Assembly: GCF_988243305.1 (NCBI RefSeq)
Contig: NZ_OZ547136.1
DNA length: 64,000 nt
Direction: 5' to 3' (one strand)
The notes beneath the pieces are model-generated. The model had not been told where the DNA came from, did not search any database, and was given only the letters and a program-made list of their open reading frames with translations. The position numbers were made by a program, and so were the translations under genes. Positions 2,883-24,099 of the stretch are shown piece after piece. Each line of letters starts with the position of its first letter. Position 1 is the stretch's first letter.

Positions 2883-3300
2883 CGTAAGTAAAATCAGCCA
2901 CCCACAGCTGGTCAGGACGTTCTGCCACGCACTGACGGTTTACGCGGTCACCTGTGGCAACGGTTTTCCGGCTGACGGTAGTGCGGACCTTTTTACCCCG
3001 GAGAACACCGGCAAGTCCCATAACCGCCATGAGGCGCGCCACTGTACATCTGGCCACCCTGATTCCTTCCCGTAACAACTGACGCCAGACTTTACGCACA
3101 CCGTACACCTGATGATTTTCATCGTATACGCGCTGTATCTCTCTCTTCAGCCAGTCATCGTGCTGCGCACGGGCACTGCGTTTATCCGGATGATGTCGCT
3201 GTTGCTGACAATGGTAATACGTTGACGGGGCAATATGCAGTTCGCTGCATACCGGTCCGACCCCGTACTGCTCACGCAGCTTATCCAGCAGTGGCATCAT
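2883..3300 (-). CDS. IS3-family transposase OrfB, N-terminal (5' exon) part
   Basis: ORF 2818..3300 reads ...[11 protein letters not shown] then runs into intron sequence. Overlaps orfA 3' end as expected for the -1 frameshift OrfAB arrangement. Confidence 0.75.
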
Positions 3301-3623
3301 TTTTTCCAGAGGCGGTCGAACTCCGCCTTCGCAAAATAAGCGGAAGCCTGGCGAAGGATATCGTTACTGCGGCGCAGTTCACGATTTTCACGTTCCAGCT
3401 CTTTCAGACGCTGACGTTCAGCGGTGGTGAGCCCTCCATCACCGCCCCCGGTATCCCGCTCATGCTGGCGAACCCAGACACGCAGAGTCTCCGGCGTACA
3501 GCCAATCTTTGGGGCAATGGAACAAATTGCCGCCCACTGTGAGTCATACTCATCCTGACTTTCCAGAACCATACGAATCGCCCGCTGACGGACTTCGGGG
3601 GAAAAACGAGTATTTTTAGTCAT
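3297..3623 (-). CDS. IS3-family transposase OrfA (HTH/leucine-zipper)
   Basis: 108-aa [22 protein letters not shown]...[36 protein letters not shown]; recalled as IS629/IS1203-type OrfA. Confidence 0.85.
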
Positions 3624-4023
3624 CCTGTTTACCTCTTTCTCAGGGAGTTTAGTCTCCAGGATTCCCGGGACGGTTCAGTTTCCATTCATGCTTTTAATCT
3701 TTCCCAAAATAACTAAAGCCAGATGTAACAGGCGAACATGGTAAAGTGTCCGCATATTTGAACCTCGCTGATAACGCCTTCACCTGACAACATATTGTCA
3801 GTGCTTCAGCATGTTAAGCTGTTCTTCTGAAAGGTCGGTAAGCTCCAGGACCATATTCCGACTTATCCTGGAAGGATGGCTGGTTCAGACTTCAGGATAT
3901 GGTTGAGGGTTACCTAGTGATGAAGTCTCTTGATCAGGAGATCTGATCAAGAGACAGCACTGGGTGGGGGTGACCATCTCATATCTATGCCTCCATTTGG
4001 CAATCATCAATTTTGACAGAAAT

Positions 4024-4056
4024 AAAGCACAGGGGCTGTTCACATAGCCCCTGTGC
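4024..4056 (-). terminator. Putative rho-independent terminator downstream of MFS gene
   Basis: 10-bp perfect stem CACAGGGGCT / AGCCCCTGTG (4026-4053) followed on the minus strand by a U-rich stretch CTTTATTTCTG. Confidence 0.4.
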
Positions 4057-4138
4057 AGAGCAATTGATAACTCTTACTTTGTTGAAAATTCATTGCAGCT
4101 AAGGTCAATGCCACAACAACAAAGCAAATAAAGATTAA

Positions 4139-5425
4139 TCAGGCTTTATTAGGTAAAGTATTTACCGAATGTGAAATCTTCACTGTCAGTGTAACAACTG
4201 CTGAACACAATAGCGTGGCTATCATAAAGATGAATGCACTGTTGTAACTTCCGTCGCTGCTTTGGATCAACCAGCCAATGACAGGGGCAGAAATAACCCC
4301 AGCCATCTGACCGCCAAAGTTAACGATACCTGATGCTCGCCCCATGATATTACTGGGAATAGTATCCATCAAAATGCCCCAGAACATTGCCATAGCGAAG
4401 AACATAAACAACGCTGAAACACATTGATAAACAACAGCCATATCCGCACTACTTACGCTGAAAGTCAAGTACAGGAACCCTGCAGCAATTACGGAAGTCA
4501 AGACATATAGTGTTTTACGTTGTGGTTTTAATTTATCTGAGCAATAGCCACCTAATAATGTCCCCCCAGCTCCAAATAGAAAGGGGATCGCAGCCATTAC
4601 GCCAGTTTTGGCCAATGAGAATTCACGAACAGTAATTAGATAACTTGGCAACCAAGTTGAAAAGCCCCAGAACGTAATATCAAACAAAAACCAAATGCAG
4701 GCCATCTGCCAAAGTACAGGCATCTTAAGTACATCTTTAAATGCAATATTACTTTTGCCTTGCCCCCCGTCCTGGTTATCTGATGCTAGCTCAACCAGAT
4801 CCTGCTGCGTTATTGCTGGATGATCTTTTGGATTATCACGGGTAAATAACCAGATACCCGCAGCAATAAATAAACCTGGTATACCCAATACGATGAAGAC
4901 CATGTGCCAGCCAAATGCACCGATAATGCTCGCCGCTACAACAACCGCCAGTGCTGGCCCTAAGGTGTTCACCGTAGACTGAATGGCTGTTGCGCGTCCT
5001 CGCTCTTTCGATGGAAAATAGGTCGAAATCATCTTCCATGAAGCTGACGGGAAACAACCTTCCCCTATACCAAAGAAGAAACGAACAATCAGCATTAACG
5101 GCAGAGCAAGTACCGCACCAGTAAGGCTGGTAAATATGGACCACCATGCAATACCAATGGCCATAATTTTCCTTGAGCCAAACTTATCGGCTAACATTCC
5201 ACCGGGAATCTGAAATGCAGCATAACCAATAAAAAAAGCACTAATAATTAAACCTTGTTGTGTTGTATCAAGATTTAAATCTTTGCCAATATAAGGTAAT
5301 GAAACACTCATGACCATTCTGTCGAGAAAAGAGAGTAACCATGCTAACCAAATTAAGGTCAAGACGGTATATCTTGCTTTCCAAAGTTTTGGTTTACCTA
5401 AAGGTAAAGATGTTTGTAGATTCAT
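4139..5425 (-). CDS. MFS transporter, anion:cation symporter (ACS) family-like
   Basis: 428-aa ORF with about 12 hydrophobic segments and MFS signature region ...GGMLADKFGSRK...; last gene of a four-gene minus-strand operon. Confidence 0.75.
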   Translation of the reverse strand: MNLQTSLPLGKPKLWKARYTVLTLIWLAWLLSFLDRMVMSVSLPYIGKDLNLDTTQQGLIISAFFIGYAAFQIPGGMLADKFGSRKIMAIGIAWWSIFTSLTGAVLALPLMLIVRFFFGIGEGCFPSASWKMISTYFPSKERGRATAIQSTVNTLGPALAVVVAASIIGAFGWHMVFIVLGIPGLFIAAGIWLFTRDNPKDHPAITQQDLVELASDNQDGGQGKSNIAFKDVLKMPVLWQMACIWFLFDITFWGFSTWLPSYLITVREFSLAKTGVMAAIPFLFGAGGTLLGGYCSDKLKPQRKTLYVLTSVIAAGFLYLTFSVSSADMAVVYQCVSALFMFFAMAMFWGILMDTIPSNIMGRASGIVNFGGQMAGVISAPVIGWLIQSSDGSYNSAFIFMIATLLCSAVVTLTVKISHSVNTLPNKA

Positions 5426-5502
5426 TGTAATGTCCTTTGAGTGTAACTATCTATCGCGACTCTTTTGGTCGCGATAGATCAATAAGTATTTAACGTAATT
5501 TA

Positions 5503-7098
5503 TTAATATTCTTTTCTGATAACTTTACCGCTACAGGCATAACTTTCCGTACCATTAATTAAGGCGATACGTCCATTGACCATTACAAGTTCAATTCCTT
5601 CTGGATACTGATTTGGCTCTACAAATGTTCCCTTATCTGCAATGGTTTTGGGATCGAACATTACAATATCAGCCGCATACCCAACTTTAAGTAATCCCCT
5701 GTTTTGCAGACCTAATACTTCCGCAGGTTTGCCGGTCATTTTACGAATTGCATCCTCCCAACTTAGGCATCCCTCTTCACGCACATATTTGCCCAGTACA
5801 CGAGGAAAGGCTCCAAACACTCGAGGATGGGGTTTTCCTGCCCCCATTAAACCATCAGTACAGACGTTCTGCTCTGCACGACAGAGGAATTTAATAACGT
5901 GTTCTTCTGTCCCATAGAAATCAACCATTCCTACAGCGTTTTCTTCTTCAAGAAGCAAATCGAAAGTGGCGTTATAGGGATCTTTACCGCGTAATTCGCC
6001 TAACTGGACAAGATTCAAACCTACGGCATCCTGATTTTTGGCAGTTTTCACACTGGTGACAAAAATTTGGTCTAGACCAGCAAAGTCAATAAAGTTATCC
6101 CATCCTGGAATACCTTGCTGAATGTCGTCGATCATTTTTGCACGCAGTTCTGGCGAAGCTAGTCGTTTCAGCAATTTATCCGTTCCTCCGGAATGGACCC
6201 ACGGAGGTAGGATTACACCAAGCATAGTGCTACCTGCAACATACGGATATTGATCGTAAGAGATACGTATTCCCTCTTTCTGCGCCTGTTCCAACATGCC
6301 AAGCATTTGGTCAATAAGCCCCCAGTTTTTCTTCCCACATACTTTCATATGTGATATATGGAGCCACACACCACTAGCTTTGGCTATATCGATTAATTCT
6401 TGGGTTGAATTGATAATATCATCAGCTTCACTGCGCTGATGCACCACAAAGAGCCCATCATATTTCGCTGTGACTTTACATAATTCAATCAACTCAGCAG
6501 TATCGCCAAAGGCGCAGGGCATATAGATAAGCCCAGAGGAAAGACCAAATGCCCCAGCTTTTAACTCCCGCTCAAGGATTTCACACATCTTTGCGACGTC
6601 TTCACGGGTAGAAGGGCGACCATCAAGTCCCATCGCTTCCATACGTACATTACCATGCGGAACCAGATACGCTAGATTTGTTGCTGGATGGTGAGATTCC
6701 AATAGGTTTAGGTATCCATCGGTATTTTTATATTTCCAGTCTATTTTATCGGTATCACCGTCAAGTCCAGCAATATTTTTACGCCAAGCTGGAATATATT
6801 TCTCAGGTAGTGGAGCCAATGCGACACCATCCTGTCCAAGTAACTCAGTAGTAATACCTTGACGTATTTTTGCCGATAGTTCAGGATTTATAATGGCCGA
6901 TAAATCAGAATGTGTGTGTGTATCAATAAAACCAGGGCAAATAATTTTTCCGCTTGCATCAATAAATTGTTCATTCTTACCAACATCAACGTGGCCGATG
7001 GAAATAATATATCCATCATCAACTACCACGTCAGTAATTATGCCCGGACTTCCTGTTCCATCAATAACATTTCCATTTTTAAAAATTGTTTTCATCAT
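5503..7098 (-). CDS. N-acyl-D-amino-acid deacylase (D-aminoacylase) family amidohydrolase
   Basis: ORF with KNGNVIDGTG...FIDTHTHSDL metal-binding amidohydrolase motifs. Start placed at the ATG (7098) preceded by GGAGA on the minus strand. Confidence 0.75.
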   Translation of the reverse strand: MMKTIFKNGNVIDGTGSPGIITDVVVDDGYIISIGHVDVGKNEQFIDASGKIICPGFIDTHTHSDLSAIINPELSAKIRQGITTELLGQDGVALAPLPEKYIPAWRKNIAGLDGDTDKIDWKYKNTDGYLNLLESHHPATNLAYLVPHGNVRMEAMGLDGRPSTREDVAKMCEILERELKAGAFGLSSGLIYMPCAFGDTAELIELCKVTAKYDGLFVVHQRSEADDIINSTQELIDIAKASGVWLHISHMKVCGKKNWGLIDQMLGMLEQAQKEGIRISYDQYPYVAGSTMLGVILPPWVHSGGTDKLLKRLASPELRAKMIDDIQQGIPGWDNFIDFAGLDQIFVTSVKTAKNQDAVGLNLVQLGELRGKDPYNATFDLLLEEENAVGMVDFYGTEEHVIKFLCRAEQNVCTDGLMGAGKPHPRVFGAFPRVLGKYVREEGCLSWEDAIRKMTGKPAEVLGLQNRGLLKVGYAADIVMFDPKTIADKGTFVEPNQYPEGIELVMVNGRIALINGTESYACSGKVIRKEY

Positions 7099-7161
7099 AA
7101 TTCTCCATGACGATGTCACATGGTGACACCGCCTGTAAGGGAAGAGGTTTTATCTTTAAAT

Positions 7162-8346
7162 TTAACGGAGATATAGTGTCTGAATAATGCTGTAATAACC
7201 ACTGGCCGAACCGGTTAATTGCTCGATCTCAATGTACTCATCAATGGTGTGCGCCAAGTTTTCCCGTGAAGGTCCAAACCCAATAGTTTTGATCCCCGCT
7301 TCACCAGCATAGTGGCTTCCGTTTGTACAAAATGAGTACTGCGTGATGGTCGGTGAAAACCCTGCCTTACGAATACCAACCAACGCAGCTTGTACAAATT
7401 CATCAGATTCGTCAAACACCCACCCAGGGAAGAAACGCTCACCTTCAATAGTTGCTCCTGTGTAGCAGGACTCTTGGCCTACTGCGTACGAGACCCGCCC
7501 TTTAAACTGCGGATCGAGGATTGCGAACTCTGCCAGTACACGTTCCAGAGGTGCAATAACGTTTTCTTTCGTTTCTCCGACAAGCAAACGGCGATCGTAA
7601 GTTGCACGGCAGTAATCCGGCACTACTGATGCTCCCGGATATGGCGATGATTTAATGTCTGTTAACTCTAAAATTCCGGGGCCAAGTATCGGATGCATTG
7701 GTGGTACAATGGTACGAATTTTGTCAATTAATTGTGCCATTTTGTAGACAGCATTTATTCCTGCCTGTGGATTGGCTGAGTGAGCTGGTTTCCCAAATGT
7801 TTCGACAACAATTTCAGCGCGTCCACGCTGACCGATTTTCAGGTTTAATTCGGAAGCTTCACCGATAATTACGTAATCAGGTTTAAAACGTTCACTGACC
7901 AAGCGTGCCGCAACACCTTCAAAACACTCTTCATGGACAATACAGGCTACGTAAATTTTGCCGGAAAAATTACGCTGGTAATCCTGACCAAAAAAACCAA
8001 CGGCGGAGATCATAGCCGCAACAGCTCCCTTCATGTCGGTTGCCCCCCGACCATAAATTTTGCCTTCGTCAATATCACCGCCATATGGATTCCGAGTCCA
8101 CATATCTTCGTTTACAGGCACAGTATCAATATGCCCATCCAAAACGAGAGTTTTCCCTGGCTGATTGCCAATAATACCACCAATAATATTGCCATACTTA
8201 TCGATATGAATATCGTCAAACTGGTAATACTGCATCATATCTTTTATGGCATTCACTACATCCCCTTCCTGACCGGAATAGCTTTTTTGTTGGATCAATG
8301 TCTGACAATTTTTAATAACTTCTTTATAACGACTTGCAGATAACAT
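7162..8346 (-). CDS. M20-family peptidase (ArgE/DapE/YgeY-like)
   Basis: 394-aa ORF with HIDTVPV and GRGATDMKG metal-ligand motifs typical of M20 deacylases. Confidence 0.75.
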   Translation of the reverse strand: MLSASRYKEVIKNCQTLIQQKSYSGQEGDVVNAIKDMMQYYQFDDIHIDKYGNIIGGIIGNQPGKTLVLDGHIDTVPVNEDMWTRNPYGGDIDEGKIYGRGATDMKGAVAAMISAVGFFGQDYQRNFSGKIYVACIVHEECFEGVAARLVSERFKPDYVIIGEASELNLKIGQRGRAEIVVETFGKPAHSANPQAGINAVYKMAQLIDKIRTIVPPMHPILGPGILELTDIKSSPYPGASVVPDYCRATYDRRLLVGETKENVIAPLERVLAEFAILDPQFKGRVSYAVGQESCYTGATIEGERFFPGWVFDESDEFVQAALVGIRKAGFSPTITQYSFCTNGSHYAGEAGIKTIGFGPSRENLAHTIDEYIEIEQLTGSASGYYSIIQTLYLR

Positions 8347-8378
8347 GGTGTTCCTCCGTTATTATTTAAATTAGAAAA

Positions 8379-9593
8379 TTACTGCTGAAGTACCGGATAC
8401 TGAGTCCCCCAGACAATATTGCGATATGATTCTGGGTCAGTGTCACCTTCAGTGCTGATTAGCAAAACACGGGAATGTGAATCCAGCCCCAACTGTTCAC
8501 GGGTTTGCCTAAATGTAGGGGAGGTCATCAGTAACGCCAGAAGCCCTGTGGTTACTGCCCCTGACTCTCCAGAAATAATCTGCGGATCTCCTGCTAACGG
8601 ATTTCCCAAAATACGCATACCCAACATTGCAACCTCGTCAGGACAGGAGGCAAAGGCTGTAGCATAGTCACGTAGCAGCTTCCAGCCGATACTGTTAGCC
8701 TCGCCACAAGCCAGTCCTGCCATGAGTGTCTGCAAATCCCCCCCTACTGCCACGGCATTTCCATCTTTCGCCAAGGCTGAGCGGTAGAGGCAATCGGCAA
8801 TTAATGCTTCTACAACGATTACTTTTGGACGATTATCCCCCCAAGCAGCAGTCACCATTCCCTGGACCATACCCGCAAACGAACCAACCCCCGCTTGGAC
8901 AAAGATATGTGTTGGTGCTACCTGATGGAGTTGAGCCATAGCCTCCAGCATCAACGTGCTATAGCCCTGCATGATCCATAGAGGAATTTTTTCATACCCT
9001 TCCCAAGCGGTGTCCTGAACAACAATCCAGCCGGATTTATCTGCCTGCTCTGCGGTCATTCGAACAGCATCGTCATAGTTCATATTGACAATTTCAGCCG
9101 TAGCACCTTCATTGCGAATTGATGACAGGCGTTGTTGCGAAGACCCCTTTGGCATATAAACTACTGCATTTTGCTTTAGCTGACGCGCCATCCACGCTAC
9201 TCCCCGCCCGTGGTTACCGTCAGTAGTAGTAGCAAAGGTAACTGTTTTCAGATAATGGCGCACATCGTCACTAGTCATGATATCAAACGACAATTCATCA
9301 ATCTCTTTCCCTAGTAATTCTGCGATATGACATGCCATGGCATAGGCGCCACCCAGCACTTTGAAGGCTTTTAGGCCAAAACGCTGAGACTCATCTTTGA
9401 GATAGATCTTTTTTATCCCTAATTTTTGTGAAAGCGCAGGTAATGTATAGAGCGGCGTTGGCTCGTAGCCTGGTATTGTCCGATGAAAATTCAATGCTTT
9501 TACCAGCTCATTGTGACTAAATGAAGCTAGTGGTGCGCTAGGTTGCTGAGTAAATTGTGTCTGGTTAATAAAAAAGGATATTTTTTCCTGCAT
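8379..9593 (-). CDS. Diaminopropionate ammonia-lyase-like PLP enzyme (DpaL/YgeX family)
   Basis: 404-aa ORF, fold-type II PLP enzyme with lysine in ...QRFGLKAFKVLGG...; first gene of the operon. Confidence 0.75.
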   Translation of the reverse strand: MQEKISFFINQTQFTQQPSAPLASFSHNELVKALNFHRTIPGYEPTPLYTLPALSQKLGIKKIYLKDESQRFGLKAFKVLGGAYAMACHIAELLGKEIDELSFDIMTSDDVRHYLKTVTFATTTDGNHGRGVAWMARQLKQNAVVYMPKGSSQQRLSSIRNEGATAEIVNMNYDDAVRMTAEQADKSGWIVVQDTAWEGYEKIPLWIMQGYSTLMLEAMAQLHQVAPTHIFVQAGVGSFAGMVQGMVTAAWGDNRPKVIVVEALIADCLYRSALAKDGNAVAVGGDLQTLMAGLACGEANSIGWKLLRDYATAFASCPDEVAMLGMRILGNPLAGDPQIISGESGAVTTGLLALLMTSPTFRQTREQLGLDSHSRVLLISTEGDTDPESYRNIVWGTQYPVLQQ

Positions 9594-9675
9594 GATAAGA
9601 CCTCATTGTACTGGTATCTCGCACCCTGTAATCAGAGAAATCCAAAGATGCCTTCTGTATGACTATTCACTAAAA

Positions 9676-9691
9676 AGCAAAATGCGTACCA
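9676..9691 (-). promoter_or_regulatory. Candidate sigma-54 (-24/-12) promoter for the catabolic operon
   Basis: Minus-strand TGGTACGCATTTTGCT: GG and GC elements separated by 10 nt, near-consensus to TGGCACG-N4-TTGC. About 80 bp upstream of the operon ATG and adjacent to a divergent sigma-54 activator gene. Confidence 0.5.
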
Positions 9692-9973
9692 GTTTTTTAT
9701 TAGAGTTAGTAAAAAGTAACATATATTTCTTTAACCTTTTCATTTCAATGAATTAGGAAGTCATTGCGTCATAATGAATCCCCCTCCCTAGTATTGGCCT
9801 TATTTCAATGCCTGATAAATTCTCATTAATGAGAATTTATGTGATCAATCAAAAGAAAATAATAAAAACACAAATAAAACATATAGATATATTGATCTTT
9901 TTCAAGTAAATTTTTCCTAATATCATATAATTTCTCATTTTTCTGAGAATTTTATACTGACTGGAGGAGAACC

Positions 9974-11719
9974 ATGATTTCAGTACTGAGAAACATTCAG
10001 GATGATATATGTAATTATGCCGATGCTATCTCTGGCATAATCGGAACTGATGTAGAAATCATTGATGAGTCATTAATGCGCATAGCTGGTACAGGTCAAT
10101 ACAGGTATATGCTCAATGAGAGTGTGGTAAAAAATGGTTACATTTATCGGCATGTATTACAGGTACGAAAAACAGTTCTGATCACAAATCCAGGAGAACA
10201 TCCTCTCTGCCAGTTATGTGAGAAAAACCATTATTGCTCGGAAATGTTAGATTTGAACACACCCATTTTTCTCAATGAGCGTGTCATCGGAGTCATTGGA
10301 ATTATTTGCTCTACCCAGACACAGCGTAAAATCTTGTTGAACCAGATTGATAAATTTATTACCTTTATTGAGCAAATTGCTGCGATGATTTCCAGTAAAG
10401 TCTTCGAATGTCTGGAACGCCTGCGGGCCCAAGAAACTCTCAGTACATTTCGTCGATTGATTGATGCGATGGATCGCGGTGTTGTAGCTATTGATGGTAA
10501 GGGCCGAATCTGGCACGCTAACAACTCAGCCGATCGCATACTTAACCGCAAGGTTCAAGGTATTACGTTAACGATTGAAACAACCGGGGACATTCTATAT
10601 GGAGATGAAGAAGCATGGTTGACGCTGGAAGGAGAAAGATACCATGTGTTGTGCAAACAAATTTCTCTTTCCTCATTAGATAATGATCGACTCACCATGA
10701 TTATCTTTCGTGATGCACATGACTATCTGAGCACAATAGTTTATCCTTACGAATCTGATGCTCAAGTGCGATTAATTGGACATTCACCACTAATGGAACA
10801 ACTCAGAAGCACCGTTAGAAAAATCGCCAGTAGTTGTGCCAGCGTACTGATCACCGGAGAAAGTGGCTCAGGTAAAGAAGTTGTGGCATTTGCTATTCAT
10901 CAGAATAGTCCACGTAAATCCGCTCCTTTTGTAACAATCAACTGCGCTGCAATCCCAGAGCAACTGCTGGAAAGCGAGCTATTTGGCTACGTGAAGGGGG
11001 CATTTAGTGGGGCGAATCCTAAAGGACGTATAGGTAAATTTGAACTGGCCAATGGGGGAAGTCTCTTTCTCGATGAGATCGGAGATATGCCGCTCCATCT
11101 GCAGGCCAAGCTGCTTAGAGTTCTTCAGGAAAAAAACATTACCCGCGTTGGCTCTAATAATATTATCAATATTGATGTGCGCATTATTGCTGCGACCAAC
11201 AAAAACATCCGTGAAATGGTTGAGAGTAATCAGTTTCGAGAAGACCTTTATTATCGCCTGAATGTGGTTCCTCTAGTAATTCCTTCTTTACGGGAACGAC
11301 GGACTGATATTGCCCTCCTTGCACAATATTTTGCTGATGAGTTCTCTGAAAGCTATCAACGTCCAGTGAAAAAACTCCCCGATGATATAATTAACCATCT
11401 TTACGCTTGGCACTGGCCTGGTAACATCCGTGAATTACGTAATGTCATTGAGTATATTTTTGTTATGCGTGGTGAAACTACTGATATCAACGTCAGCCAT
11501 CTTCCCCCTTATCTGCTCAATGTAGTGGACAACAGCAAAACTGTTATGACAATCAACACCAAGCAGCTACTGAGTCAGGGAAGACAAGCGGAAAGGAGGG
11601 CAATTGAAACTGCATTACAACGATATAGCCCAAGTGGAGAGGGGAAAAAACAAGCTGCCGCTGAATTAGGAATAAGTATTGCTACACTATACCGAAAGAT
11701 AAAACAATATGGTTTATAG
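9974..11719 (+). CDS. Sigma-54-dependent transcriptional activator (bEBP, YgeV-like) with N-terminal sensor domain
   Basis: 581-aa ORF with Walker [15 protein letters not shown] loop, ELFGY motif and C-terminal HTH (...[17 protein letters not shown]). Divergent from the operon. Confidence 0.85.
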
Positions 11720-11889
11720 GCGAATTTTCTTTATCACACAATATTTAGATAAGCAAATTGAGTAATTATTCTGTAAAGCATTCAGCGAATGCCTGTTATG
11801 TCACAAAAATTATTTACAGATCACATAAGTCATTTTCAAATGGCTTTGACTCTGGAAAAATAAGGTGTGCACTACTGTACGGGGTGAGC

Positions 11890-12895
11890 AACACTGGTGA
11901 TGGCGGGGTATTGTTTCATGAAATGCTAAATAACTGCTCCTAATGCCGCTACACTTTAGCCAGCCCATGTTTTCCACCGGGAAATGGGCTGACGGTATCC
12001 ATAAAGTGACGAACCTTTTTCAACAACTGCCACATTGAACGGCACTGGTGATTTCGGGTTACTGTCTCATGAAGCGCCTGCCATAACCGTTCGATATGAT
12101 TGACCCACGGCGAGTAAACCGGCTGATAAATTATCCTGAACTTCGAGTTTGCTTTCAGCCAGCGCAACGTTTCACGGCTTTTGTGGATGATGTAGTTATC
12201 GACAATGAGTGTAATCGTTTTTGCCCGCCGGTATGTCGCTTTCAGGTGTTTTAACAGACTGATAAATAAGGACGAACCTTTACTGTTCCCACCAACGTAG
12301 CTGACTTTTCCCGTACCGCTGTGCAGCGCACCGGCAAGATAGTACTTTTCATTCTGACCCGGCGTGACAACGCGCTTTTGCTGCCCACGTAGCTGCCAGC
12401 CTGCACCAATTTTGGGATTGAGGTGAATATCCACTTCATCTTCGTAAAACACGGGGTTTTCCGCACAGCATTTCGCCAGTGCTTCATGAATAGCGACCAT
12501 TTTTTCTTCTTTGTGTGGGTCACGGATACGCAGTGTCGGCGCAGTTCTCCGCCATACCAGTCCGGCAGCAGGCAACCAGCGGCATATACACTCGGCAGGT
12601 AATGATTTGTCCATTAACACCCGACTGCGTGAACCAGTTAATCCAGGGTCCAACATAGGAACGGACTCAGCAGAGCATTCTAGCAACATCGCTGACACGG
12701 TGGAGCCATTGCAGTATCACCATAGCAGTCAGTCTGCGGGCATAATTTTTATCGTGTGTTTTGTGGATAGCTTTCTGTATCAGGTGTCGTTCGTTACAGG
12801 GAATTGGCTCTATGATTGGCATAGTTCAGTCCGGTTGGTGATTTGTTTTAATTTGTCGATTGAACAAACGCACAATCCGGGCTGAGTTCCCTCAA
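11890..12895 (-). mobile_element. IS630-family element, apparently defective (approximate ends)
   Basis: Transposase reading frame recognisable in two frames: N-terminus MPIIEPIPCNERHLIQKAIHKTHDKNYARRLTAM... from ATG at 12820-12822, ending at an in-frame TGA; C-terminal DDE part in ORF 11949..12698. Element ends not mapped. Confidence 0.6.
11949..12822 (-). pseudogene. IS630-family (Tc1/mariner-like) transposase, disrupted by premature stop/frameshift
   Basis: C-terminal 249-aa ORF ...DPHKEEKMVAIHEALAKCCAENPVFYEDEVDIHLNPKIGAGWQLRGQQKRVVTPGQNEKYYLAGALHSGTGK...DNYIIHKSRET... The N-terminal segment is in a different frame and stops at TGA. Confidence 0.6.
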
Positions 12896-15010
12896 AGTGA
12901 TCTACTATTCCGTGCAGCTATTTAGATCAAGGCTAAGGCAGGAATTTTATGTAATTAATGCTAGAGGTAAACGTTGTGGGTAAATGGTTTGCATGGTTAA
13001 TATTTAACCATAAGGAATAAGAGGTATTGCAGAATTAATTCCGTATAGTTATTCTTCTTGTAAGAAGATTTTTGGGTGCTAGTGATAAATTACAGAGCCT
13101 ATAGAAATGTAAAGTAACAAATCACAGAATAAGGATACAATAGCATAATTTATTGTCACACAAAGCCCCAAGACATTCTGTAATAAAAGGAATTTCCATA
13201 AGAAGAACCATTGACAATAATATGAGCACCACCATTGTAGAGATATTTATTTATGACTGAAAAGGAACTCCAAAATTTGGCTATTTCTATATATGAAAGG
13301 CAACGAGAGAAGTTATCACGTGAGACAGAGTGTAATAAATCTACCTCAATAAGATTTGCCCTAGAAGATTTCCTAAAGAATGCTCCGAAACGTATGCGAT
13401 CTGCGCGTGCTCGCCCCCCAGGGTAATAAATGTCGCAAACTCTGATAATATTTTTATGAAAACAAGCATATTTACAAACGTAAACTAATGATTCTAATTT
13501 GACAGAATATAAACTATAAGTATTAATAAATACCATACGGAGCAGAAAAAAATATCAAAATGAGTTAATTTGATTAGAAAGATTTATCCCATTTATAAAG
13601 ATAATTGTAGAAAGATTCATTGACTCTAAGAGCAAATAAGGAGAGGGCATACAGGATATAACTAGTACTCATAATAAAAATCCCTCTACCGATATAAGTA
13701 AAATTTATTTCCCAGACGAGTTTTTAATAATACATATCAGAAACAGTGCTAAACGATGGGCCGTAATCCTCATGAATAGTAACTCATGGTTATTTTACAC
13801 TGGATTATCGGTGGGGTAATTCTGATAATAGAAACACCTGAAAAACTAAAATCATTAATTTTAAAATACAACCATATACTCATCAAACTCTCGATACACC
13901 ATTCTTCTTTTAAAGTAAAGAAAAACTCTATCTGTGCTTATGTTCCACAACATAAATAGAATAAAAAAATTAAGGATTTATATATTAAGAGTGAATTTAC
14001 ATTTTAGGCTAACTTTAGTACATATTAATTATTGTTTCTTATTAATTTTAAACTTCAAAAGCTATATCAAGGGTTGCCACTTCTATCTGCGACTAACAGC
14101 ATATCTATCAGCAACAATTGATTAATTCCAGCACCTCATGTCGGCGCGATCTGGTGGAAAAGCCATTCCACCAAAACAACCCCAAGCGCTGGCACGTTGG
14201 GGAGATCTGCACTGTGAACCAGCTGGCAATGAGCCGCTTTATTATCGAGTTCGGTGACCGCCTAGACGGTCACTTCTGAGAAAAGGCATTTACACAGAAT
14301 CCTAAACCGGCTCGCAGGTTTCCCCCACTCCCCATCCGCACTCAAGTTCAGACGGCGAATAACATAGCTAATCAGCTCATTACGGAATGACTACCATCCA
14401 GATAGTGTGCCGCAGTTTAAGGTTCGGTCAACCGCTTTTTAACCATTCAGCATTGCCTACAATACAAATAAGGAGCCTTATATTATGCCTAATCTCTGTA
14501 TGCTGCATAGTGCCGGGTGCCTCCCGGTGAGTCCAGCCTGGTGTCTCTGAACCCGCATAGAAAGGATTAGGGTAATATAAAAACAAACACCTGTTACTGA
14601 TATGCTCCGCCGCTTAGGGGAGTTCACCATACATTTTTATTTTTAACAAAAAAGCTCAAGGCGACAATAATAAATACTATAAAATGTGAGCAGCATAACA
14701 TTTTAACTTAGTAACTAATATTCACTAAACTTACCAATTCACATACGCCCCACGGCATGGCAAAGCTTCGTTACGTTAGTTTATACCACATAGGTATTAT
14801 TACCAAACTAAATAATCACTTTACGCTCTGTATTTTGCCTGTTTTCACTGCGGTTTTTCTCAATACCCCGTCCAGAATAACGTTAACACATTATTAACTT
14901 AAATCCGGAGAACATGATGATGACTGGATTCAAACACACTTAACATGAATATCCTCTATCCATTAAAATAACTGTCATTGAGCCGGTTGAAAAAACGAGA
15001 TGAACTATAA

Positions 15011-15184
15011 ACAGATCTAGCAGTGGCATGGCTGGCGAATGGCGTTATCAATCCACTGCCTTTACTGAGTGCTGAATATCCCTTCACTGACCTGGAAGAG
15101 GTGCTACGTTTCGCCGGTGATAAAACCCAGGCATCAAAAGTCCAGCTTGTTTTCTTAGAGATAAATAAAGGAATAATACAATGA
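15011..15184 (+). pseudogene. idnD: 3'-terminal remnant of L-idonate 5-dehydrogenase gene
   Basis: Short in-frame stretch ...AWLANGVINPLPLLSAEYPFTDLEEVLRFAGDKTQASKVQLVF... resembles the IdnD C-terminus. Its stop overlaps the idnO ATG (ATGA). Everything upstream is replaced by AT-rich DNA. Confidence 0.45.
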
Positions 15185-15800
15185 ACAAGCAATTTTCACT
15201 GGCAGAAAAAATATCTTGATTACCGGATCAGCACAGGGCATTGGCTTTTTACTGGCAACCGGTCTGGGTAAATATGGCGCACAAATAATTATTAATAATA
15301 TTACTGCCGAACGCGCATAACTTGCTGTAGAAAAACTCCACCAGGTGGGTATTCAGGCCGTTGCCGCACCTTTTAATGTTACTCATAAACATGAAATTGA
15401 TGCCGCCGTTGAACATATCGAAAAGGACATCGGCCCCATTGATGTGCTGGTGAATAACGCCGGTATCCAGCGCCGTCATCCTTTTACTGAGTTCCCTGAA
15501 CAAGAGTGGAATGATGTGATCGCAGTAAACCAGACCGCCGTGTTCCTGGTGTCGCAAGCGGTAACCCGTCACATGGTTGAACGCAAGGCAGGTAAAGTTA
15601 TTAATATTTGCTCGATGCAAAGCGAACTGGGACGTGGCACCATCACCCCTTATGCCGCATCGAAAGGGGCGGTAAAAATGCTCACCCGCGGCATGTGCGT
15701 CGAGCTGGCGTGCCACAATATTCAGGTCAACGGTATTGCGCCGGGCTATTTCAAAACAGAAATGACTAAAGCACTGGTTGAGGACGAAGCCTTCACCGCC
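15181..15800 (+). pseudogene. idnO: 5-keto-D-gluconate 5-reductase (SDR) gene, inactivated
   Basis: ATG at 15181 reads MNKQFSLAEK then hits a stop after 12 codons. SDR frame resumes in another frame (ITGSAQGIGFLL...) and contains an in-frame TAA at 15318-15320. The SDR catalytic region is intact in ORF 15345..15863 but the 3' end diverges. Confidence 0.6.
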
Positions 15801-15805
15801 TGGTT

Positions 15806-16003
15806 GTGCAAGAACAAATTTCCATTGCGGGTTTTTATGGGCTGGAGATTGGCAGGCAAATGATCCCAAGCCTCGCCAGCGTAATTACTCCCCGTTTTGA
15901 TATTGGTCGGATGGCCGCCCAAATGTTGCTGAGCAAAATTAAGAATAACGATCACAACACTGTTGACCTCGGGTATCAGATTTATCACTGTAACACGCTT
16001 TAG
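15806..16003 (+). pseudogene. idnR: 3' remnant of LacI-family regulator gene, fused downstream of idnO remnant
   Basis: ORF ...[55 protein letters not shown] resembles a LacI/GntR-type C-terminus. The transporter gene expected between idnO and idnR is missing. Confidence 0.4.
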
Positions 16004-16080
16004 GTTATTTTCTCTTCATTACACGTATTCTCTTTGCCGGACGTTGCCTATACTCCAAGCAGGAAACTGGAGGAAATCTC

Positions 16081-16745
16081 ATGAGCGCCTCCCTGTTAAT
16101 TGCCCGCATGCCAATACGGTGGGGTGGGATATCTTTGGCGAGAAAGGCCATCCGGTGCGGGCAACGGTTTCAGACCTAGGGCCACTGTTGCTGGCGTGGC
16201 TGTTGAATCTCAACGATGTGCAGTCTGGCGTGCTGGATATCATTTTCCGCATTGCTGATGATCAGGGATTGTTGCTGCTCGACTTTAAAGATCTGCGGGC
16301 AATTACCCAGTACATCGGCGATAACGCCAAATCCTTCCAGAATCAGTACGGTAATATCAGTAGCGCATCGGTTGGTGCCATCCCGCGCGGATTACTGTCG
16401 CTGGAGCAACAAGGCGCAGAGCATTTCTTTGGCGAGCCGATGCTGGATATCAAAGACTGGATGCGCACCGATACCAACGGTAAAGGCGTTATTAATATCC
16501 TCAGCGCCGAGAAGCTTTATCAGATGCCGAAACTGTATGCAGCCAGTCTGCTGTGGATGCTCTCGGAGCTGTATGAACAATTGCCGGAAGCGGGCGATCT
16601 GGAGAAACCAAAACTGGTGTTTTTCTTCGACGAAGCGCATCTGCTGTTTAACGATGCAGCACTGGTACTGCTGGATAAGATTGAGCAGGTGATAAGGCTT
16701 ATTCGCTCAAAAGGCGTTGTCGTCAGAACGGCTTCCCCTGTGTGA
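16081..16745 (+). pseudogene. yjgR: DUF853/HerA-like ATPase gene with internal deletion and 3' truncation
   Basis: ATG at 16081 encodes MSASLLIAR then shifts frame. ORF 15963..16745 carries the central region (...[24 protein letters not shown]...[17 protein letters not shown]...) but ends prematurely with unrelated residues. Confidence 0.55.
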
Positions 16746-17258
16746 CAAAGCCATAGCTCAGGTGCGTGCGGTCCGCACGGCGCGGAGCCTGAGGGCTTCA
16801 CGGCGGAGGATATGCGGACCATCGGGCGCTACCTGCACTGCGAGGCGAATTGGAACATCGACTCGGACTTGAGCCTGTGAGGGGGGCCGTCCTCGGGAGA
16901 AGTTTTTCTGCGAAATAACTATGCGCCGACGGACGAACACTCGTTCGTGTGGCCTATGGCCCAGGGCAAAGGCTGGGGGGCCCCTATTAAGTTGTCAAGA
17001 ATGTTTATTACACCAGCGGGGTATAAAAAGTACCGTCACGCATCATGGCGAATAGAACGTCGCAGCGCCTTGTTCACAGTGTTTTCACTCGTGGTTATCT
17101 GTACCCGTGAATATCAGACCATTGTCACCAGCCCATGCCTGTAATTCTGTCAGAATGGCTACAGCCTGTTTGTTGGGTGGTACAAGATGCAGTGCCCTCT
17201 GGTTCCCTCTGATGAGAGTCCTGGCGGGGTGAACAAATAAAAAAGAAAACATAAATAA

Positions 17259-17296
17259 AACCATCCGGCTTTTGGGGCCGGATGGTTATTCATTAT
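17259..17296 (-). terminator. Hairpin terminator downstream of integrase gene
   Basis: CCATCCGGC / GCCGGATGG 9-bp stem (17264-17291) flanked by A/T runs on both sides. Confidence 0.5.
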
Positions 17297-17321
17297 TTCT
17301 GTGTCACTGAATTTTCATTCA

Positions 17322-18503
17322 TCAGGTCTGCTCAGAAAGTGAATCAATGTAGTCAGCGTACCATTGCATCATTTCACGGCGACCATCGAGATACTGTGCG
17401 TGGTTATAGGTACCGCGCATGATGTTTTTATCAACATGGGCAAGCTGGAGTTCAATCCAGGCAGAGCTGAAATCATGGTCATGGAGAATGGTACTGAAAG
17501 TATGCCGAAAACCATGAGCTGTAGTGAATGTATGCCAGCCAACTTGTTGAAGAAACTCATTGATGCAACCACGGCTACGAGGTTGATTACCCCTGTATAC
17601 ACCAGGAATAACCAGATCTGAGTTACGGGGATTTGTGATTATTTTTATATCTTTCAATAACATTTGAGCCTGATGAGAAAGAGGAACAACATGCGGCCTC
17701 CGCATTTTCATTCTCTCTTTTGGGATTACCCAGAGGGCATTGGTAAAATCAATTTCATCCCAAGTAGCCAGGCGTAATTCTCCCGTTCGAACAGCAGTCA
17801 GAACCAGTATCCGCGTTACCAGAGACATAAAATTTCCTGAAACTTTCATTTGGTACATGAAAGCTCCTAACTGTTCTTCAGATAGCATCCGTCTCTGCTG
17901 TTTTTCAGGATGCAGAACAACACTGCTGAGAGTCGATGCTGGGTTAATAGTGGCGCGCCCCGTCGCAATGGCATAATCAAATATTTGAGAACAGAGCTGA
18001 CGAGTCTTACGTAACGCTTCAAGTTTGCCATTCCTTTCAATAACCCTCAGTGCATTCAATATTTCCAAGGGGCGAATATCAGCCACAGGACGCTTCCCTA
18101 GCGTGGGATTAATATGATTCTCGAATCTTGCACGCTGGTCCGCTAAATAACCCGCAGTCCAACGACAAGCCATATGTGTGAACAACTCTTCTGCAAGAGT
18201 ACAAAATGTGCATGCAATACTTTCTCTTAGTGCATGTTTACTCGCCTGTTTTTCATATGAAGGATCTTTTCCTTCAGCCAGGAGTTTACGTGCGTCATCC
18301 CGTTTCTGACGCGCCAGAGCCAGTGATATGCCTGGATAGACACCAATCACCAATTTCTTTTCTTTACCCGCAAATCGATACTTCAGATTCCAGTAACGAG
18401 CGCCAGATTTCTTGATAAGAAGGTAAAGTCCTTGACCATCAGAAAGTTTGTAATCCTTGTCAGCGGGTTTGGCCGACTCAATTTGTCGAACAGTAAGTGG
18501 CAT
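17322..18503 (-). CDS. Tyrosine recombinase, P4-type phage/island integrase
   Basis: 393-aa ORF MPLTVRQIESAKPADKDYKLSDGQGLYLLIKKSGARYWNLKYRF... with C-terminal catalytic region ...HGFRHTFSTIL...LAHVDKNIMRGTYNHAQY (R..HxxR..Y). No tRNA gene adjacent. Confidence 0.85.
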   Translation of the reverse strand: MPLTVRQIESAKPADKDYKLSDGQGLYLLIKKSGARYWNLKYRFAGKEKKLVIGVYPGISLALARQKRDDARKLLAEGKDPSYEKQASKHALRESIACTFCTLAEELFTHMACRWTAGYLADQRARFENHINPTLGKRPVADIRPLEILNALRVIERNGKLEALRKTRQLCSQIFDYAIATGRATINPASTLSSVVLHPEKQQRRMLSEEQLGAFMYQMKVSGNFMSLVTRILVLTAVRTGELRLATWDEIDFTNALWVIPKERMKMRRPHVVPLSHQAQMLLKDIKIITNPRNSDLVIPGVYRGNQPRSRGCINEFLQQVGWHTFTTAHGFRHTFSTILHDHDFSSAWIELQLAHVDKNIMRGTYNHAQYLDGRREMMQWYADYIDSLSEQT

Positions 18504-18678
18504 GATGTTAACTCCGAAAAGTAGCCCCCAGAGTAGCCCCCAAAATCATCTTGATGCTCATGGAAGATGGTTTACATCCAGAGTAAAAGAATTTCTGATA
18601 ATACCTTATTTTAACGTGTGTTAAAGGGGATGAAGAGAGTTCTGTTGAAATCAGTCGAAATAAATAGGGCTTAATAAA

Positions 18679-19493
18679 TCCTCCCCGCCGGGGAGTGCTG
18701 GCTGGAACGCCTGCGACTGGCAAAAACGTTGGGCTTCGATTTTGTCGAGATGTCGGTAGATGAAACTGACGAGCGCCTGTCGCGCCTCGACTGGAGCCGC
18801 GAGCAGCGTCTGGCGCTGGTGAATGCGATTGTTGAAACCGGCGTGCGTGTGCCGTCCATGTGCCTTTCTGCCCATCGTCGTTTTCCGTTGGGCAGCGAAG
18901 ATGACGCGGTGCGGGCGCAGGGGCTGGAGATTATGCATAAAGCCATCCAGTTCGCCCAGGACGTTGGCATTCGCGTGATCCAGCTGGCGGGCTATGACGT
19001 TTACTATCAGGAAGTCAATAACGAAACGCGTCGTCGTTTCCGTGACGGCCTGAAAGAGAGCGTTGAGATGGCAAGCCGCGCGCAGGTGACGCTGGCGATG
19101 GAGATCATGGATTATCCGTTGATGAACTCCATCAGCAAGGCGCTGGGTTACGCGCACTATCTCAACAACCCGTGGTTCCAGCTCTACCCGGATATCGGCA
19201 ACCTGTCGGCGTGGGACAACGATGTGCAGATGGAGTTGCAGGCCGGAATCGGGCATATCGTCGCGGTACATGTGAAAGACACCAAACCTGGCGTCTTCAA
19301 AAACGTGCCGTTTGGCGAAGGTGTAGTGGATTTCGAACGTTGTTTCGAAACGCTCAAACAGAGTGGCTATTGCGGGCCGTACCTGATTGAGATGTGGAGC
19401 GAAACGGCGGAAGACCCGGCGGCAGAAGTGGCGAAAGCGCGTGATTGGGTGAAAGCGCGCATGGCGAAAGCGGGCATGGTGGAGGCGGCATAA
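18679..19493 (+). pseudogene. ulaE: L-ribulose-5-phosphate 3-epimerase gene, 5'-truncated
   Basis: Reading frame begins mid-protein (...[32 protein letters not shown]...). The first ~13 codons and upstream ula genes are absent; homology starts abruptly about 180 bp from the integrase start. No ATG. Confidence 0.65.
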
Positions 19494-20179
19494 TGCAAAA
19501 GCTAAAACAGCAGGTATTTGAAGCCAACATGGAGCTGCCGCGCTACGGGCTGGTGACCTTTACCTGGGGCAACGTCAGCGCTATCGACCGCGAACGCGGG
19601 CTGGTGGTGATCAAGCCCAGCGGCGTTGCCTACGAAACCATGAAAGCGGCCGATATGGTGGTGGTTGATATGAGCGGCAAGGTGGTGGAAGGGGAGTATC
19701 GCCCATCTTCCGACACTGCGACGCATCTCGAACTCTACCGTCGTTACCCGTCGCTTGGCGGCATTGTCCATACCCACTCCACTCATGCCACCGCATGGGC
19801 GCAGGCGGGGCTGGCAATTCCGGCGCTAGGCACCACGCACGCCGACTACTTCTTTGGCGATATCCCGTGCACGCGCGGATTAAGCGAAGAAGAGGTGCAG
19901 GGCGAGTATGAACTGAACACCGGCGAAGTGATTATCGAAACGCTGGGTGACGCCGAGCCGCTGCATACGCCGGGGATTGTGGTGTATCAGCACGGGCCGT
20001 TCGCCTGGGGGAAAGATGCTCACGATGCGGTGCATAACGCGGTAGTGATGGAAGAAGTGGCGAAAATGGCGTGGATTGCGCGCAGTATTAACCCACAACT
20101 GAATCACATCGACAGCTTCCTCATGAATAAACACTTCATGCGTAAGCACGGTCCTAACGCTTATTACGGGCAGAAGTAA
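19493..20179 (+). CDS. ulaF: L-ribulose-5-phosphate 4-epimerase
   Basis: 228-aa protein [34 protein letters not shown]...; ATG overlaps the ulaE stop (TAATG). Confidence 0.85.
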
Positions 20180-20307
20180 AACACGCGCTGCGGAAATTTC
20201 CTTCTTCGGGAGATAACTGGTCTAATTCCGCAGCCGTTTTTCAAAAAAAGCCCCCTGCGAAGGGGGCAAAGCAAACTATGGCAATGTTTCGTTGGTTATA
20301 CCTGGTG

Positions 20308-20583
20308 CTAGCGATAAATATCCGCGCTGGCGTGCATATTGCCGTTACTCCCCGGTTCCCGCATCAGAATTACGTGGTAGTACGTTGCGCCCTGCGCATC
20401 TGTTTCTTCATTTAATGCCTGACGTGCTTCACTTTCAGTGGCGAAATTATGATTGATATAAATCACGCCTAAGCTTTGCATATCGTCCATATTTCTGGCC
20501 TGGTGGTTATTGATTTCAATGGCTGCCCATGTATTTGCACTTAGCAAAAGCACAGCCAGAAGGGCTAAAACTCGACTGAACAT
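20308..20583 (-). CDS. yjfY: Small secreted protein YjfY (DUF1471)
   Basis: 91-aa product MFSRVLALLAVLLLSANTWAA... with signal peptide; start chosen at internal ATG 20581-20583. Confidence 0.75.
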   Translation of the reverse strand: MFSRVLALLAVLLLSANTWAAIEINNHQARNMDDMQSLGVIYINHNFATESEARQALNEETDAQGATYYHVILMREPGSNGNMHASADIYR

Positions 20584-20891
20584 AGATACCTCCTCGACGG
20601 CTGACTTTGTGTGCTCTCCTCTGTGATGATCTTCTGATTTAATTTTAATCAATGATAAAGAAGTTGATGGTGACCATTTCTGATGCAGTTGTTCAAAAAA
20701 ACACCATGATGAAGTGTGATGAACTCCAAATCAGCGGTTTAGAGGTTAATTGCGAAAGGGGAGATTTATTTCGGCTCTGCCCTTGAGTTTAGCGGGGCAT
20801 ACAAGTACTATAACGCGTCATTTTTCAGCCGACCTTTAACACGTTCCTTGCCTCCCCGGGATTCGGCTGACCCAGACAGGAGGCTGAATAA

Positions 20892-21305
<414 letters not shown>

Positions 21306-21311
21306 TTTCTG

Positions 21312-21858
<547 letters not shown>

Positions 21859-21887
21859 TCGGTCACGGTCCATTAATACGACTTTGA

Positions 21888-22349
<462 letters not shown>

Positions 22350-22371
22350 TTCGTTATTCAACGAGACGTAA

Positions 22372-22402
22372 AAACGCCGACCATTGGTCGGCGTTTTGCT
22401 TT
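22372..22402 (+). terminator. Rho-independent terminator of rpsF-priB-rpsR-rplI operon
   Basis: ACGCCGACC-ATTG-GTCGGCGT hairpin followed by TTTGCTTT. Confidence 0.7.
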
Positions 22403-22450
22403 ATAGCGAAAGCGTTACAACTGGTAGTATAACGCTCTGATATCTATTAA

Positions 22451-23267
22451 TTAGCTTGTCGCTAACTGTACTTGCGGTTCTTCATCTTTAACTTTGATAA
22501 GCGTCCACAGCGCAATGGCGCCAATAATGTCAAAGAAAGCCAGGGCAATAAAGAACGGCGCGAAGCCGATAATGTGAACGAATGCCCCGATAAACAGGTT
22601 GAAAATCAACTGACCGCTCCACGCACAGGCTCCTGCCATACCCACTGCGGTAGCTACTTCGTCTTTTTTGAACAGATCGCCACCCAGAGTTGCTGCTACA
22701 GTAGAAAGACATTGATGCGAGAACGCGCCAATACTAATCAGTAATACGGCAATGTAGGGATTTTCGACAATACTCACCAGGCCAATCGTCATCATAATGA
22801 CGGCTGCAATAGTGAAGGTAATTCTTCGTGAGTTAATTAAACTCACGCCGCGATCGTGGAAGAACTTCGCGACAAAACCACTGGCTAAACAGCCGAGATC
22901 GCCCAGCAGGAAAGGCAGCCAGACGAACATGGCAATTTCTTTCAGGCTAAAATGCAGCGTTTCGACGAAGAAAATCGGCACCCAGAAGTTAATGGTTCCC
23001 CATGCCGGGTCTGCGAGAAAACGCGCGATGCCAATCCCCCAGAAATTACGTTGGCTGAGGATATGCTTGATTGACGTTTTTTCTTTCTTATCTGTTTTAA
23101 GATGCTGTTCTTGTCCTGATTCAATATAGTGGCGCTCTTCATCAGAAAGGCGTTTGGCATCTTTCGGATCTTTATAACAAAAGAACCAAAATAAAGCCGC
23201 GAGCAAAGCAAGGCTACCTGAAACAATAAACGCAAATTGCCAGCTATGAAACATAATGCACCAGGCA
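22451..23267 (-). pseudogene. Polytopic membrane transporter-like gene (MFS C-terminal half), 5'-truncated by IS1
   Basis: Hydrophobic multi-TM ORF. Its apparent start codon lies inside the IS1 terminal repeat (23268-23281), so the N-terminal part of the gene is missing. Confidence 0.5.
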
Positions 23268-23282
23268 GGTAATGACTCCAAC

Positions 23283-23786
23283 TTATTGATAGTGTTTTAT
23301 GTTCAGATAATGCCCGATGACTTTGTCATGCAGCTCCACCGATTTTGAGAACGACAGCGACTTCCGTCCCAGCCGTGCCAGGTGCTGCCTCAGATTCAGG
23401 TTATGCCGCTCAATTCGCTGCGTATATCGCTTGCTGATTACGTGCAGCTTTCCCTTCAGGCGGGATTCATACAGCGGCCAGCCATCCGTCATCCATATCA
23501 CCACGTCAAAGGGTGACAGCAGGCTCATAAGACGCCCCAGCGTCGCCATAGTGCGTTCACCGAATACGTGCGCAACAACCGTCTTCCGGAGACTGTCATA
23601 CGCGTAAAACAGCCAGCGCTGGCGCGATTTAGCCCCGACATAGCCCCACTGTTCGTCCATTTCCGCGCAGACGATGACGTCACTGCCCGGCTGTATGCGC
23701 GAGGTTACCGACTGCGGCCTGAGTTTTTTAAGTGACGTAAAATCGTGTTGAGGCCAACGCCCATAATGCGTGCAGTTGCCCGGCAT
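23283..23786 (-). CDS. insB: IS1 transposase InsB frame
   Basis: 167-aa ORF ...[44 protein letters not shown]... Confidence 0.85.
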
Positions 23787-23980
23787 CCAACGCCATTCAT
23801 GGCCATATCAATGATTTTCTGGTGCGTACCGGGTTGAGAAGCGGTGTAAGTGAACTGCAGTTGCCATGTTTTACGGCAGTGAGAGCAGAGATAGCGCTGA
23901 TGTCCGGCAGTGCTTTTGCCGTTACGCACCACCCCGTCAGTAGCTGAACAGGAGGGACAGCTGATAGAAACAGAAGCCAC
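23705..23980 (-). CDS. insA: IS1 InsA (DNA-binding repressor)
   Basis: 91-aa [43 protein letters not shown]... Confidence 0.85.
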
Positions 23981-24099
23981 TGGAGCACCTCAAAAACACC
24001 ATCATACACTAAATCAGTAAGTTGGCAGCATCACCCTGGAAGCCAGACGTAAGGTCATCAAAGAGACAATCCTTAGCTGGCTTTTGGTTGACCCTTCAT

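Follow-up and report, generated by a model that had tools for sequence, protein, structure and literature searches.

The segment from 14130 to 14950 of the window (the whole 64,000-nucleotide stretch of DNA that was analysed) is very probably a graveyard of mobile elements, which lies at the edge of a lineage-specific island in a chromosome of the E. coli/Shigella type and has no function of its own. Judged by homology, every component belongs to a family already described, namely RF02076, IS1414 of the IS256 family, IS4 and IS3, and nothing in the segment appears to be new in kind. Homology searches, of which the first-pass annotation of this DNA had proposed BLASTN as a check, gave a known relative for each block of the segment. 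The features are listed here in order of position, where L004 denotes the locus of ETEC H10407 at which a frameshifted gene annotated 'IS4 family transposase' adjoins silE.

14126-14226, minus strand: IS4-family element, part 1, from within the region of the transposase gene that encodes the N-terminus (101 nt, 72.3% identical to L004 2548-2646)
14224-14322, plus strand: right (3') end of IS1414, IS256 family (94-98% identity)
14314-14387, minus strand: IS4-family element, part 2 (80.3% identity over 76 nt to L004 2642-2717)
14407-14457, minus strand: IS4-family element, part 3, upstream of the transposase gene and including the terminal inverted repeat (84.3% identity over 51 nt to L004 2944-2994)
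14464-14662, minus strand: STnc100-family sRNA gene (Rfam RF02076), a chimeric copy in which the IS4-family end takes the place of the 3' end and terminator
14663-14847, minus strand: upstream flank of STnc100, prophage-remnant DNA with blocks conserved among copies
14866 to about 15030, plus strand: left end of an IS3-family element, with the terminal repeat and the start of orfA
15020-15158, plus strand: 3' end of idnD, 96.1-97.9% identical to K-12 idnD/idnO and starting exactly at 15020

The first-pass annotation had described the segment as free of open reading frames of 60 aa or more on either strand, and the ORF listing bears this out. The longest ORFs that overlap the segment have 53 aa (14118-14279, plus strand), 52 aa (14428-14586, minus strand) and 50 aa (14478-14630, minus strand), the closest ORFs of at least 60 aa end at 14125 or begin at 14956, and none of the small ORFs of the segment has a match in Pfam. 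The region 14150-14560 had also been called richer in GC than its surroundings. This agrees with our measurements, which give 0.503 GC in 14150-14449, as compared with 0.28-0.31 in 13400-14149 and 0.35-0.39 in 14450-15049. Counted by homology block, GC is 0.515 in 14126-14457 and 0.307 in 12958-14125. Three explanations had been offered for the segment: a degraded gene, an island border, or a non-coding RNA.

The first of these describes the GC-rich block 14126-14457, which consists of degraded transposase DNA of IS4-family and IS1414 origin, but not the segment as a whole. Aligned with a complete copy of IS1414 (L003), 14224-14322 corresponds to the final 98 bp of the element; similarity vanishes entirely to the left of 14224. 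The transposase gene is represented in it by its final 18 codons (...MSRFIIEFGDRLDGHF*), which run to the stop at 14277-14279 and are followed by the terminal non-coding tail. Over these 98 bp, including the C-terminus MSRFIIEFGDRLDGHF* and the tail, it shares 96-98% of its nucleotides with IS1414, but it retains about 8% of the element, without a transposase or a left end, and its left break abuts IS4-family sequence at the original insertion point. Ends of IS1414 or IS256-family transposases that match 14224-14322 are found in 1706 of the 5426 complete E. coli genomes.

The hairpin to which attention had first been drawn does exist, at 14254-14273, but its stem (GTGACCG/CGGTCAC) has seven perfect pairs, not eight. 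Since 14254-14273 falls within the final codons of IS1414, this hairpin is transposase coding sequence; the GC bump, too, is coding sequence for transposase, and the hairpin is part of the end of IS1414. A further hairpin, TGGTGGAA/TTCCACCA, is found at 14152-14173. The predicted folding of 14130-14463 has z = -1.85 relative to shuffled sequence, and two of 100 shuffles fold equally well. That is, the region does not fold convincingly better than shuffled sequence, and its hairpins are true but unremarkable. An Rfam scan, likewise suggested by the first-pass annotation, was run over 12500-16500 at a permissive E-value and returned STnc100 as its sole match, with no family for the GC-rich hairpin region, which is therefore not a known RNA. 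Homology to a pseudogene had been named in advance as the result that would speak against a structured RNA, and it was found for 14126-14457, which is no RNA gene.

The sequence on either side of the IS1414 fragment comes from an element related to the one that lies between copM and silE in H10407 and ATCC 8739. Parts 1 and 2 join directly across the IS1414 insertion point in the H10407 alignment; because both flanks match one and the same element, IS1414 would have inserted into a diverged IS4-family element. The junctions were searched for a target-site duplication, and the pair CCAGCTGG / ... / CAGGTT is suggestive, though ambiguous at such divergence. The IS4-family element has lost about 226 bp between parts 2 and 3 and more than 1 kb to the left of 14126, so that about 330 bp are left here of an element whose H10407 counterpart has about 1.45 kb. 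The H10407 element carries a 32-nt terminal inverted repeat, with arms at L004 1550-1581 and 2975-3006; part 3 overlaps this repeat, but the outermost 12 nt of it are unrecognisable in the window. The three collinear matches to L004 thus include similarity to both the transposase gene and the terminal inverted repeat, and no intact DDE transposase ORF accompanies them (no ORF reaches 60 aa). The assignment to the IS4 family is made at 72-84% DNA identity over short segments, and it is convincing solely through the collinearity of the three pieces. At this identity the window copy, split as it is by IS1414, is a diverged relative of the H10407 and ATCC 8739 element and a different IS.

The third explanation, a non-coding RNA, turns out to be right in that a member of the STnc100 family is present, but this member sits in the AT-richer 14464-14662, on the minus strand, and has lost its 3' end. 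STnc100 is a family of sRNAs of lambdoid and Stx prophages. In Stx2 phages it sits 75 nt downstream of stx2B (PMC12370729), and it overlaps the Hfq-bound sRNA EcOnc27/sRNA103 of E. coli O157:H7, over-expression of which leads to higher fimZ and espA transcripts (PMC12711010). EDL933 has 11 copies, transcribed in lysogens, one of which has been verified by Northern blot (PMC5331693). PasD and STnc100 are thought to be of common ancestry (bioRxiv 10.64898/2026.05.13.724894).

The window copy scores 103.2 bits in cmscan, against a gathering score of 47 (E = 1.4e-22), and the match extends over the whole model (positions 1-206). Both cmscan and the alignments of copies show the 5' CCCCU...GGGG hairpin in the window copy, with a few non-standard pairs flagged by cmscan, and also the pair of core hairpins, GGGUUCAG...CUGAACUC and CCGGGAGGCACCCGG. 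Neither core hairpin is damaged, and the 5' region and the blocks conserved upstream are likewise intact. With the rest of the family the window copy has in common the 5' block, made up of ATGGTGAA and the CCCCU...GGGG hairpin, as well as GGGUUCAG...CUGGACUC and CCGGGAGGCACCCGG, the two hairpins of the core; its core segments are 75-88% identical in nucleotides to those of copies from E. coli prophage remnants and from lambdoid phages, Stx phages included. Similarity extends upstream of the gene: 14487-14847 is 74.6% identical over 366 nt to one of the four STnc100 copies of E. coli 550 together with its flank, and the alignment of STnc100 copies (six or seven other copies compared) contains invariant columns in the upstream region. 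The differences from the family lie in the 3' end, where a Rho-independent terminator is lacking, in the IS fragments on both sides, and in a sequence that appears to be a recombinant of two neighbouring copies. The surroundings also differ from the usual site of the family, the late region of a lambdoid prophage, where it follows Q, tRNAs or stx and precedes the esterase and lysis genes. In phage 1720a-02, for example, the STnc100 copy lies between stx2A and a 1.9-kb gene upstream of S and R; around the window copy there are no prophage late genes (no Q, stx, nanS-p esterase or lysis genes), and it is bordered by idnD, by fragments of IS elements and by AT-rich orphan DNA. Because its sequence and structure score as STnc100 while the terminator and the prophage context are missing, the window copy would best be filed as a truncated, recombinant member of the family.

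The four copies of E. coli 550 form an array in their own right (L001, NZ_CP058223.1 4304800-4307800): they score 103-128 bits and lie within 3 kb on one strand, interspersed with IS200/STnc490 and a group II intron fragment and adjacent to a phage-type tRNA-Ile. The degenerate prophage remnant around them holds this phage-type tRNA-Ile, DUF3927, tail-assembly pseudogenes and several IS elements.

Close relatives of the window were collected by means of exact matches to the 126-aa ORF at 13156-13536 and to the sigma-54 activator gene at 9974-11719. The same locus is present, at 98.5-99.9% identity, in eight metagenome contigs (L007-L014) and seven NCBI assemblies (L015-L021). All 12 relatives that span the site (L007-L014, L015-L017 and L021; 99.3-99.9% identity) carry a pair of STnc100 copies 1099 nt apart, at 1788-2007 (copy 1) and 2887-3073 (copy 2) in L007 and likewise in L008-L017 and L021. 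In these relatives copy 1 has a terminator, and copy 2 abuts the end of the IS4-family element and lacks 7 nt of the conserved CCGGGAGGCACCCGG hairpin. Their 880-nt spacer is in part homologous to DNA adjacent to an STnc100 copy in E. coli 550, and that E. coli 550 DNA contains a fragment of group II intron domains D1-D4. The window has one chimeric copy instead of two, and its affinity alternates along the gene as follows.

14720-14557: matches copy 1 (77 informative sites)
14546-14537: matches copy 2 (7 informative sites)
14533-14502: matches copy 1 (10 informative sites)
14497-14440: matches copy 2 (76 informative sites)

The simplest reading of this pattern is that the two copies recombined within the core of about 60 nt that they share, with patchy repair and with the deletion of about 1.04 kb. 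It is also conceivable, although we consider it rather unlikely, that the single copy is an artefact of assembly, and that the real genome has two copies 1099 nt apart which were collapsed into a mosaic. Two copies are, after all, what every one of the 12 relatives has, and three template switches inside 60 nt are unusual for a single crossover, although a heteroduplex with patchy mismatch repair would give such mosaics too. The products of the ORFs that span the chimera are not on record elsewhere, and a 69-mer and a 45-mer specific to it are absent from metagenome_contigs and genome_contigs, but the collections searched hold no strain diversity of Shigella or E. coli (genome_contigs has one genome per species). 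Furthermore, the shared core of about 60 nt, outside which the copies differ strongly, is short for a repeat collapse, and the contig passes through several complete or partial IS elements. A 47-mer over the junction of the IS4-family element and STnc100 is absent from the species-representative genomes, and the arrangement of the window occurs in none of the 5426 complete E. coli genomes.

The 3' end of the chimera is that of a truncated gene. In the other copies (those of phage 1720a-02, the four of E. coli 550, and copy 1 of the relatives) a GC stem is followed by a run of T, as in CCCCCTGTGTATTTTTACAGGGGGTTTTTT of L007 copy 1. In the window, homology to other STnc100 copies ends at about 14487 and the repeat of the IS4-family element begins by 14457; of the terminal hairpin of RF02076 the window copy has 1 nt, as against 18 in the consensus. 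The 29 nt at 14458-14486 are ambiguous, and are either a vestige of the 5' half of the terminator or the tip of the IS. A promoter and terminator scan, in which site counts were the same as in shuffled sequence, gave no terminator-like site in 13900-15200 on either strand. This simple scan also gave no sigma-70-like promoter upstream of the copy on the minus strand, a result that carries little weight, and the folding of the copy relative to shuffled sequence (z = -1.28) is uninformative. Hfq-dependent sRNAs need the terminator hairpin and the U-tail for Hfq binding and stability; since the surviving copy has neither, it is most likely non-functional, or at best a crippled relic. We infer its silence from this loss, and a transcript could still arise and either end or be processed elsewhere.

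Suppose, alternatively, that the copy is still a working trans-acting sRNA gene with its own promoter, as are prophage copies in uninduced lysogens (those of EDL933 are transcribed without induction; PMC5331693). Processing, or else read-through into the IS remnant, would then generate the 3' end of the RNA, and the recombination would have restored an intact core hairpin to the copy next to the IS. In keeping with this, the full-length Rfam match is far over threshold (103 versus 47 bits), the upstream flank is identical to that of the relatives' copy 1 and has the invariant blocks common to all other copies, and the chimera has an intact CCGGGAGGCACCCGG hairpin where the relatives' copy 2 has suffered its deletion. 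What is missing, however, is the main module by which such RNAs bind Hfq and are stabilised, as is well established. No prophage genes or late promoter remain nearby, and the surroundings are decaying, with idnD, idnO, idnT and idnR truncated or deleted. On balance we judge a working gene to be improbable. Still less probable, in our view, is that transcription of the terminator-less chimera starts in the conserved upstream region and continues into the IS remnants, yielding a new RNA extended at its 3' end. If this were true, such an RNA would have the seed region of copy 1 with altered stability and Hfq dependence, and the locus would be a natural case of sRNA remodelling through recombination of neighbouring prophage-derived copies. 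On the same improbable view, clusters of STnc100 outside intact prophages (two copies in this lineage, four in E. coli 550) could have been kept as functional units and not as debris.

The relic reading of the STnc100 copy must also be weighed against the suggestion that the locus codes for a small protein, with as its start codon the invariant ATGGTGAA that opens the conserved core. The 50-aa ORF at 14478-14630 (minus strand) matches phrog_35554 with E = 2e-8, phage records carry annotations of a 'hypothetical protein' beneath the match, and there is sizeable ribosome-footprint coverage on some of the EDL933 copies (PMC5331693). However, translations from the ATG agree for about 8 residues and then diverge, with lengths of 30-50 aa, and indels of 1-7 nt between copies disrupt the frame. 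One copy has GTGTGGTGAA, without an ATG, and no Shine-Dalgarno sequence lies upstream; Pfam gives no match, and conservation tracks the RNA helices of the Rfam model. We regard a coding function as highly improbable, and we reject the coding signal of the phrog_35554 match because neither start codon nor frame is conserved among STnc100 copies. Since the frame is not conserved, phrog_35554, a family of 'unknown function', probably owes its existence to spurious ORF calls on top of the sRNA gene in phage genomes.

Upstream of the sRNA gene lies the stump of the IS3-family element, whose match to the 5' ends of transposases annotated as IS3-family spans 157-171 nt at 82.5-83.4% identity. What it has in common with such elements is the left terminal repeat together with the opening codons of orfA, the gene for a helix-turn-helix protein (82-83% over about 160-170 nt). 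The frameshift site and orfB are absent, orfA has its ATG at about 14895 and an early stop, and the element is cut after about 165 nt and fused to idnD. From 15020 onward the sequence is that of the E. coli core: the last 138 nt of idnD are followed by idnO, with 97.9% identity to K-12 over 15020-15811. The idn locus (15020-16745) is itself damaged. idnO starts at 15181 and is frameshifted, with a stop at codon 13; its 3' end has been deleted, as have the whole of idnT and the 5' part of idnR, 15806-15869 being the stretch that matches idnR. The yjgR-like gene that follows (HerA_C domain) is partial. The remaining explanation, an island border, is therefore sound as to the border but not as to its place, which is at about 15020, 70 bp past the right-hand coordinate first given. 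Here the deletion junction between the IS3-family fragment and idnD forms the right border of the island.

To the left of the segment, the orphan DNA of 12958-14125 (1.17 kb, 31% GC) lies between an IS630-family copy and the IS4-family fragment. When it was compared by blastn with 5426 complete E. coli genomes, 72,556 plasmids and 50,697 phage records, nothing matched. For the 126-aa ORF within it (13156-13536, minus strand), a database of 5.8 billion proteins yields only identical copies, for which the assembly collection lists 65 blocks, and no Pfam family matches the ORF over threshold. The IS630-family copy itself (11926-12957) carries a DDE_3 ORF of 249 aa, seemingly short by the standard of transposases. 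This copy shares 78% identity with an IS630-family pseudogene adjoining the STnc100 array of E. coli 550, and its end is 81-90% identical to IS630 copies in other E. coli.

The cluster at 4139-11719 encodes an MFS transporter, an amidohydrolase, an M20 peptidase, a PLP-dependent enzyme and the sigma-54 activator. It is absent among the best places of an E. coli genome search with 4000-24000, and it occurs at 98.5-99.9% identity in NCBI draft and complete assemblies outside the E. coli collection; it probably belongs to the same lineage-specific island. Near the beginning of the window, Rfam reports a group II intron (Intron_gpII, 613-699) adjoining a 507-aa ORF (703-2226), and an element at 2818-3623 has an ALIL frameshift pseudoknot (3226-3342), further signs of a high load of mobile elements. 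Across the tamAB-ytfR-mpl-pmbA core the window is 99.7% identical to E. coli, and the heavy decay around the segment fits a Shigella-like or otherwise IS-laden lineage of E. coli.

The homologies, the missing terminator and the chimeric sequence described above are direct observations, and from the nesting of the fragments we infer an order of events. The locus would have begun as a piece of the late region of a lambdoid prophage with STnc100 sRNA genes. An IS4-family element would then have inserted at the 3' end of one STnc100 copy, removing or replacing its Rho-independent terminator, and IS1414 would have jumped into this element, after which deletions would have reduced both to fragments. 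About 200 bp upstream of the sRNA gene, a further deletion would have truncated an IS3-family element and also taken away the 5' part of idnD. Finally, in this genome, both STnc100 copies would have recombined within their core of about 60 nt, losing about 1.04 kb. The resulting chimera would have taken its 5' part and promoter side from copy 1, and its 3' part from the already truncated copy 2.

The importance of these results lies mainly in annotation, as the segment can now be labelled in full (IS4-family, IS1414, IS3-family, truncated STnc100 and the idnD junction). There is no case for pursuing the 'GC-rich structured' part as a new RNA, and automatic annotation based on Rfam will call the STnc100 copy a full sRNA gene despite its lost terminator. 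For the family, clustered arrays of STnc100 outside an intact prophage, such as that of E. coli 550, may serve as substrates for recombination. The locus suggests that closely spaced STnc100 copies can recombine, and it would offer a concrete case for work on the diversification of PasD and STnc100.
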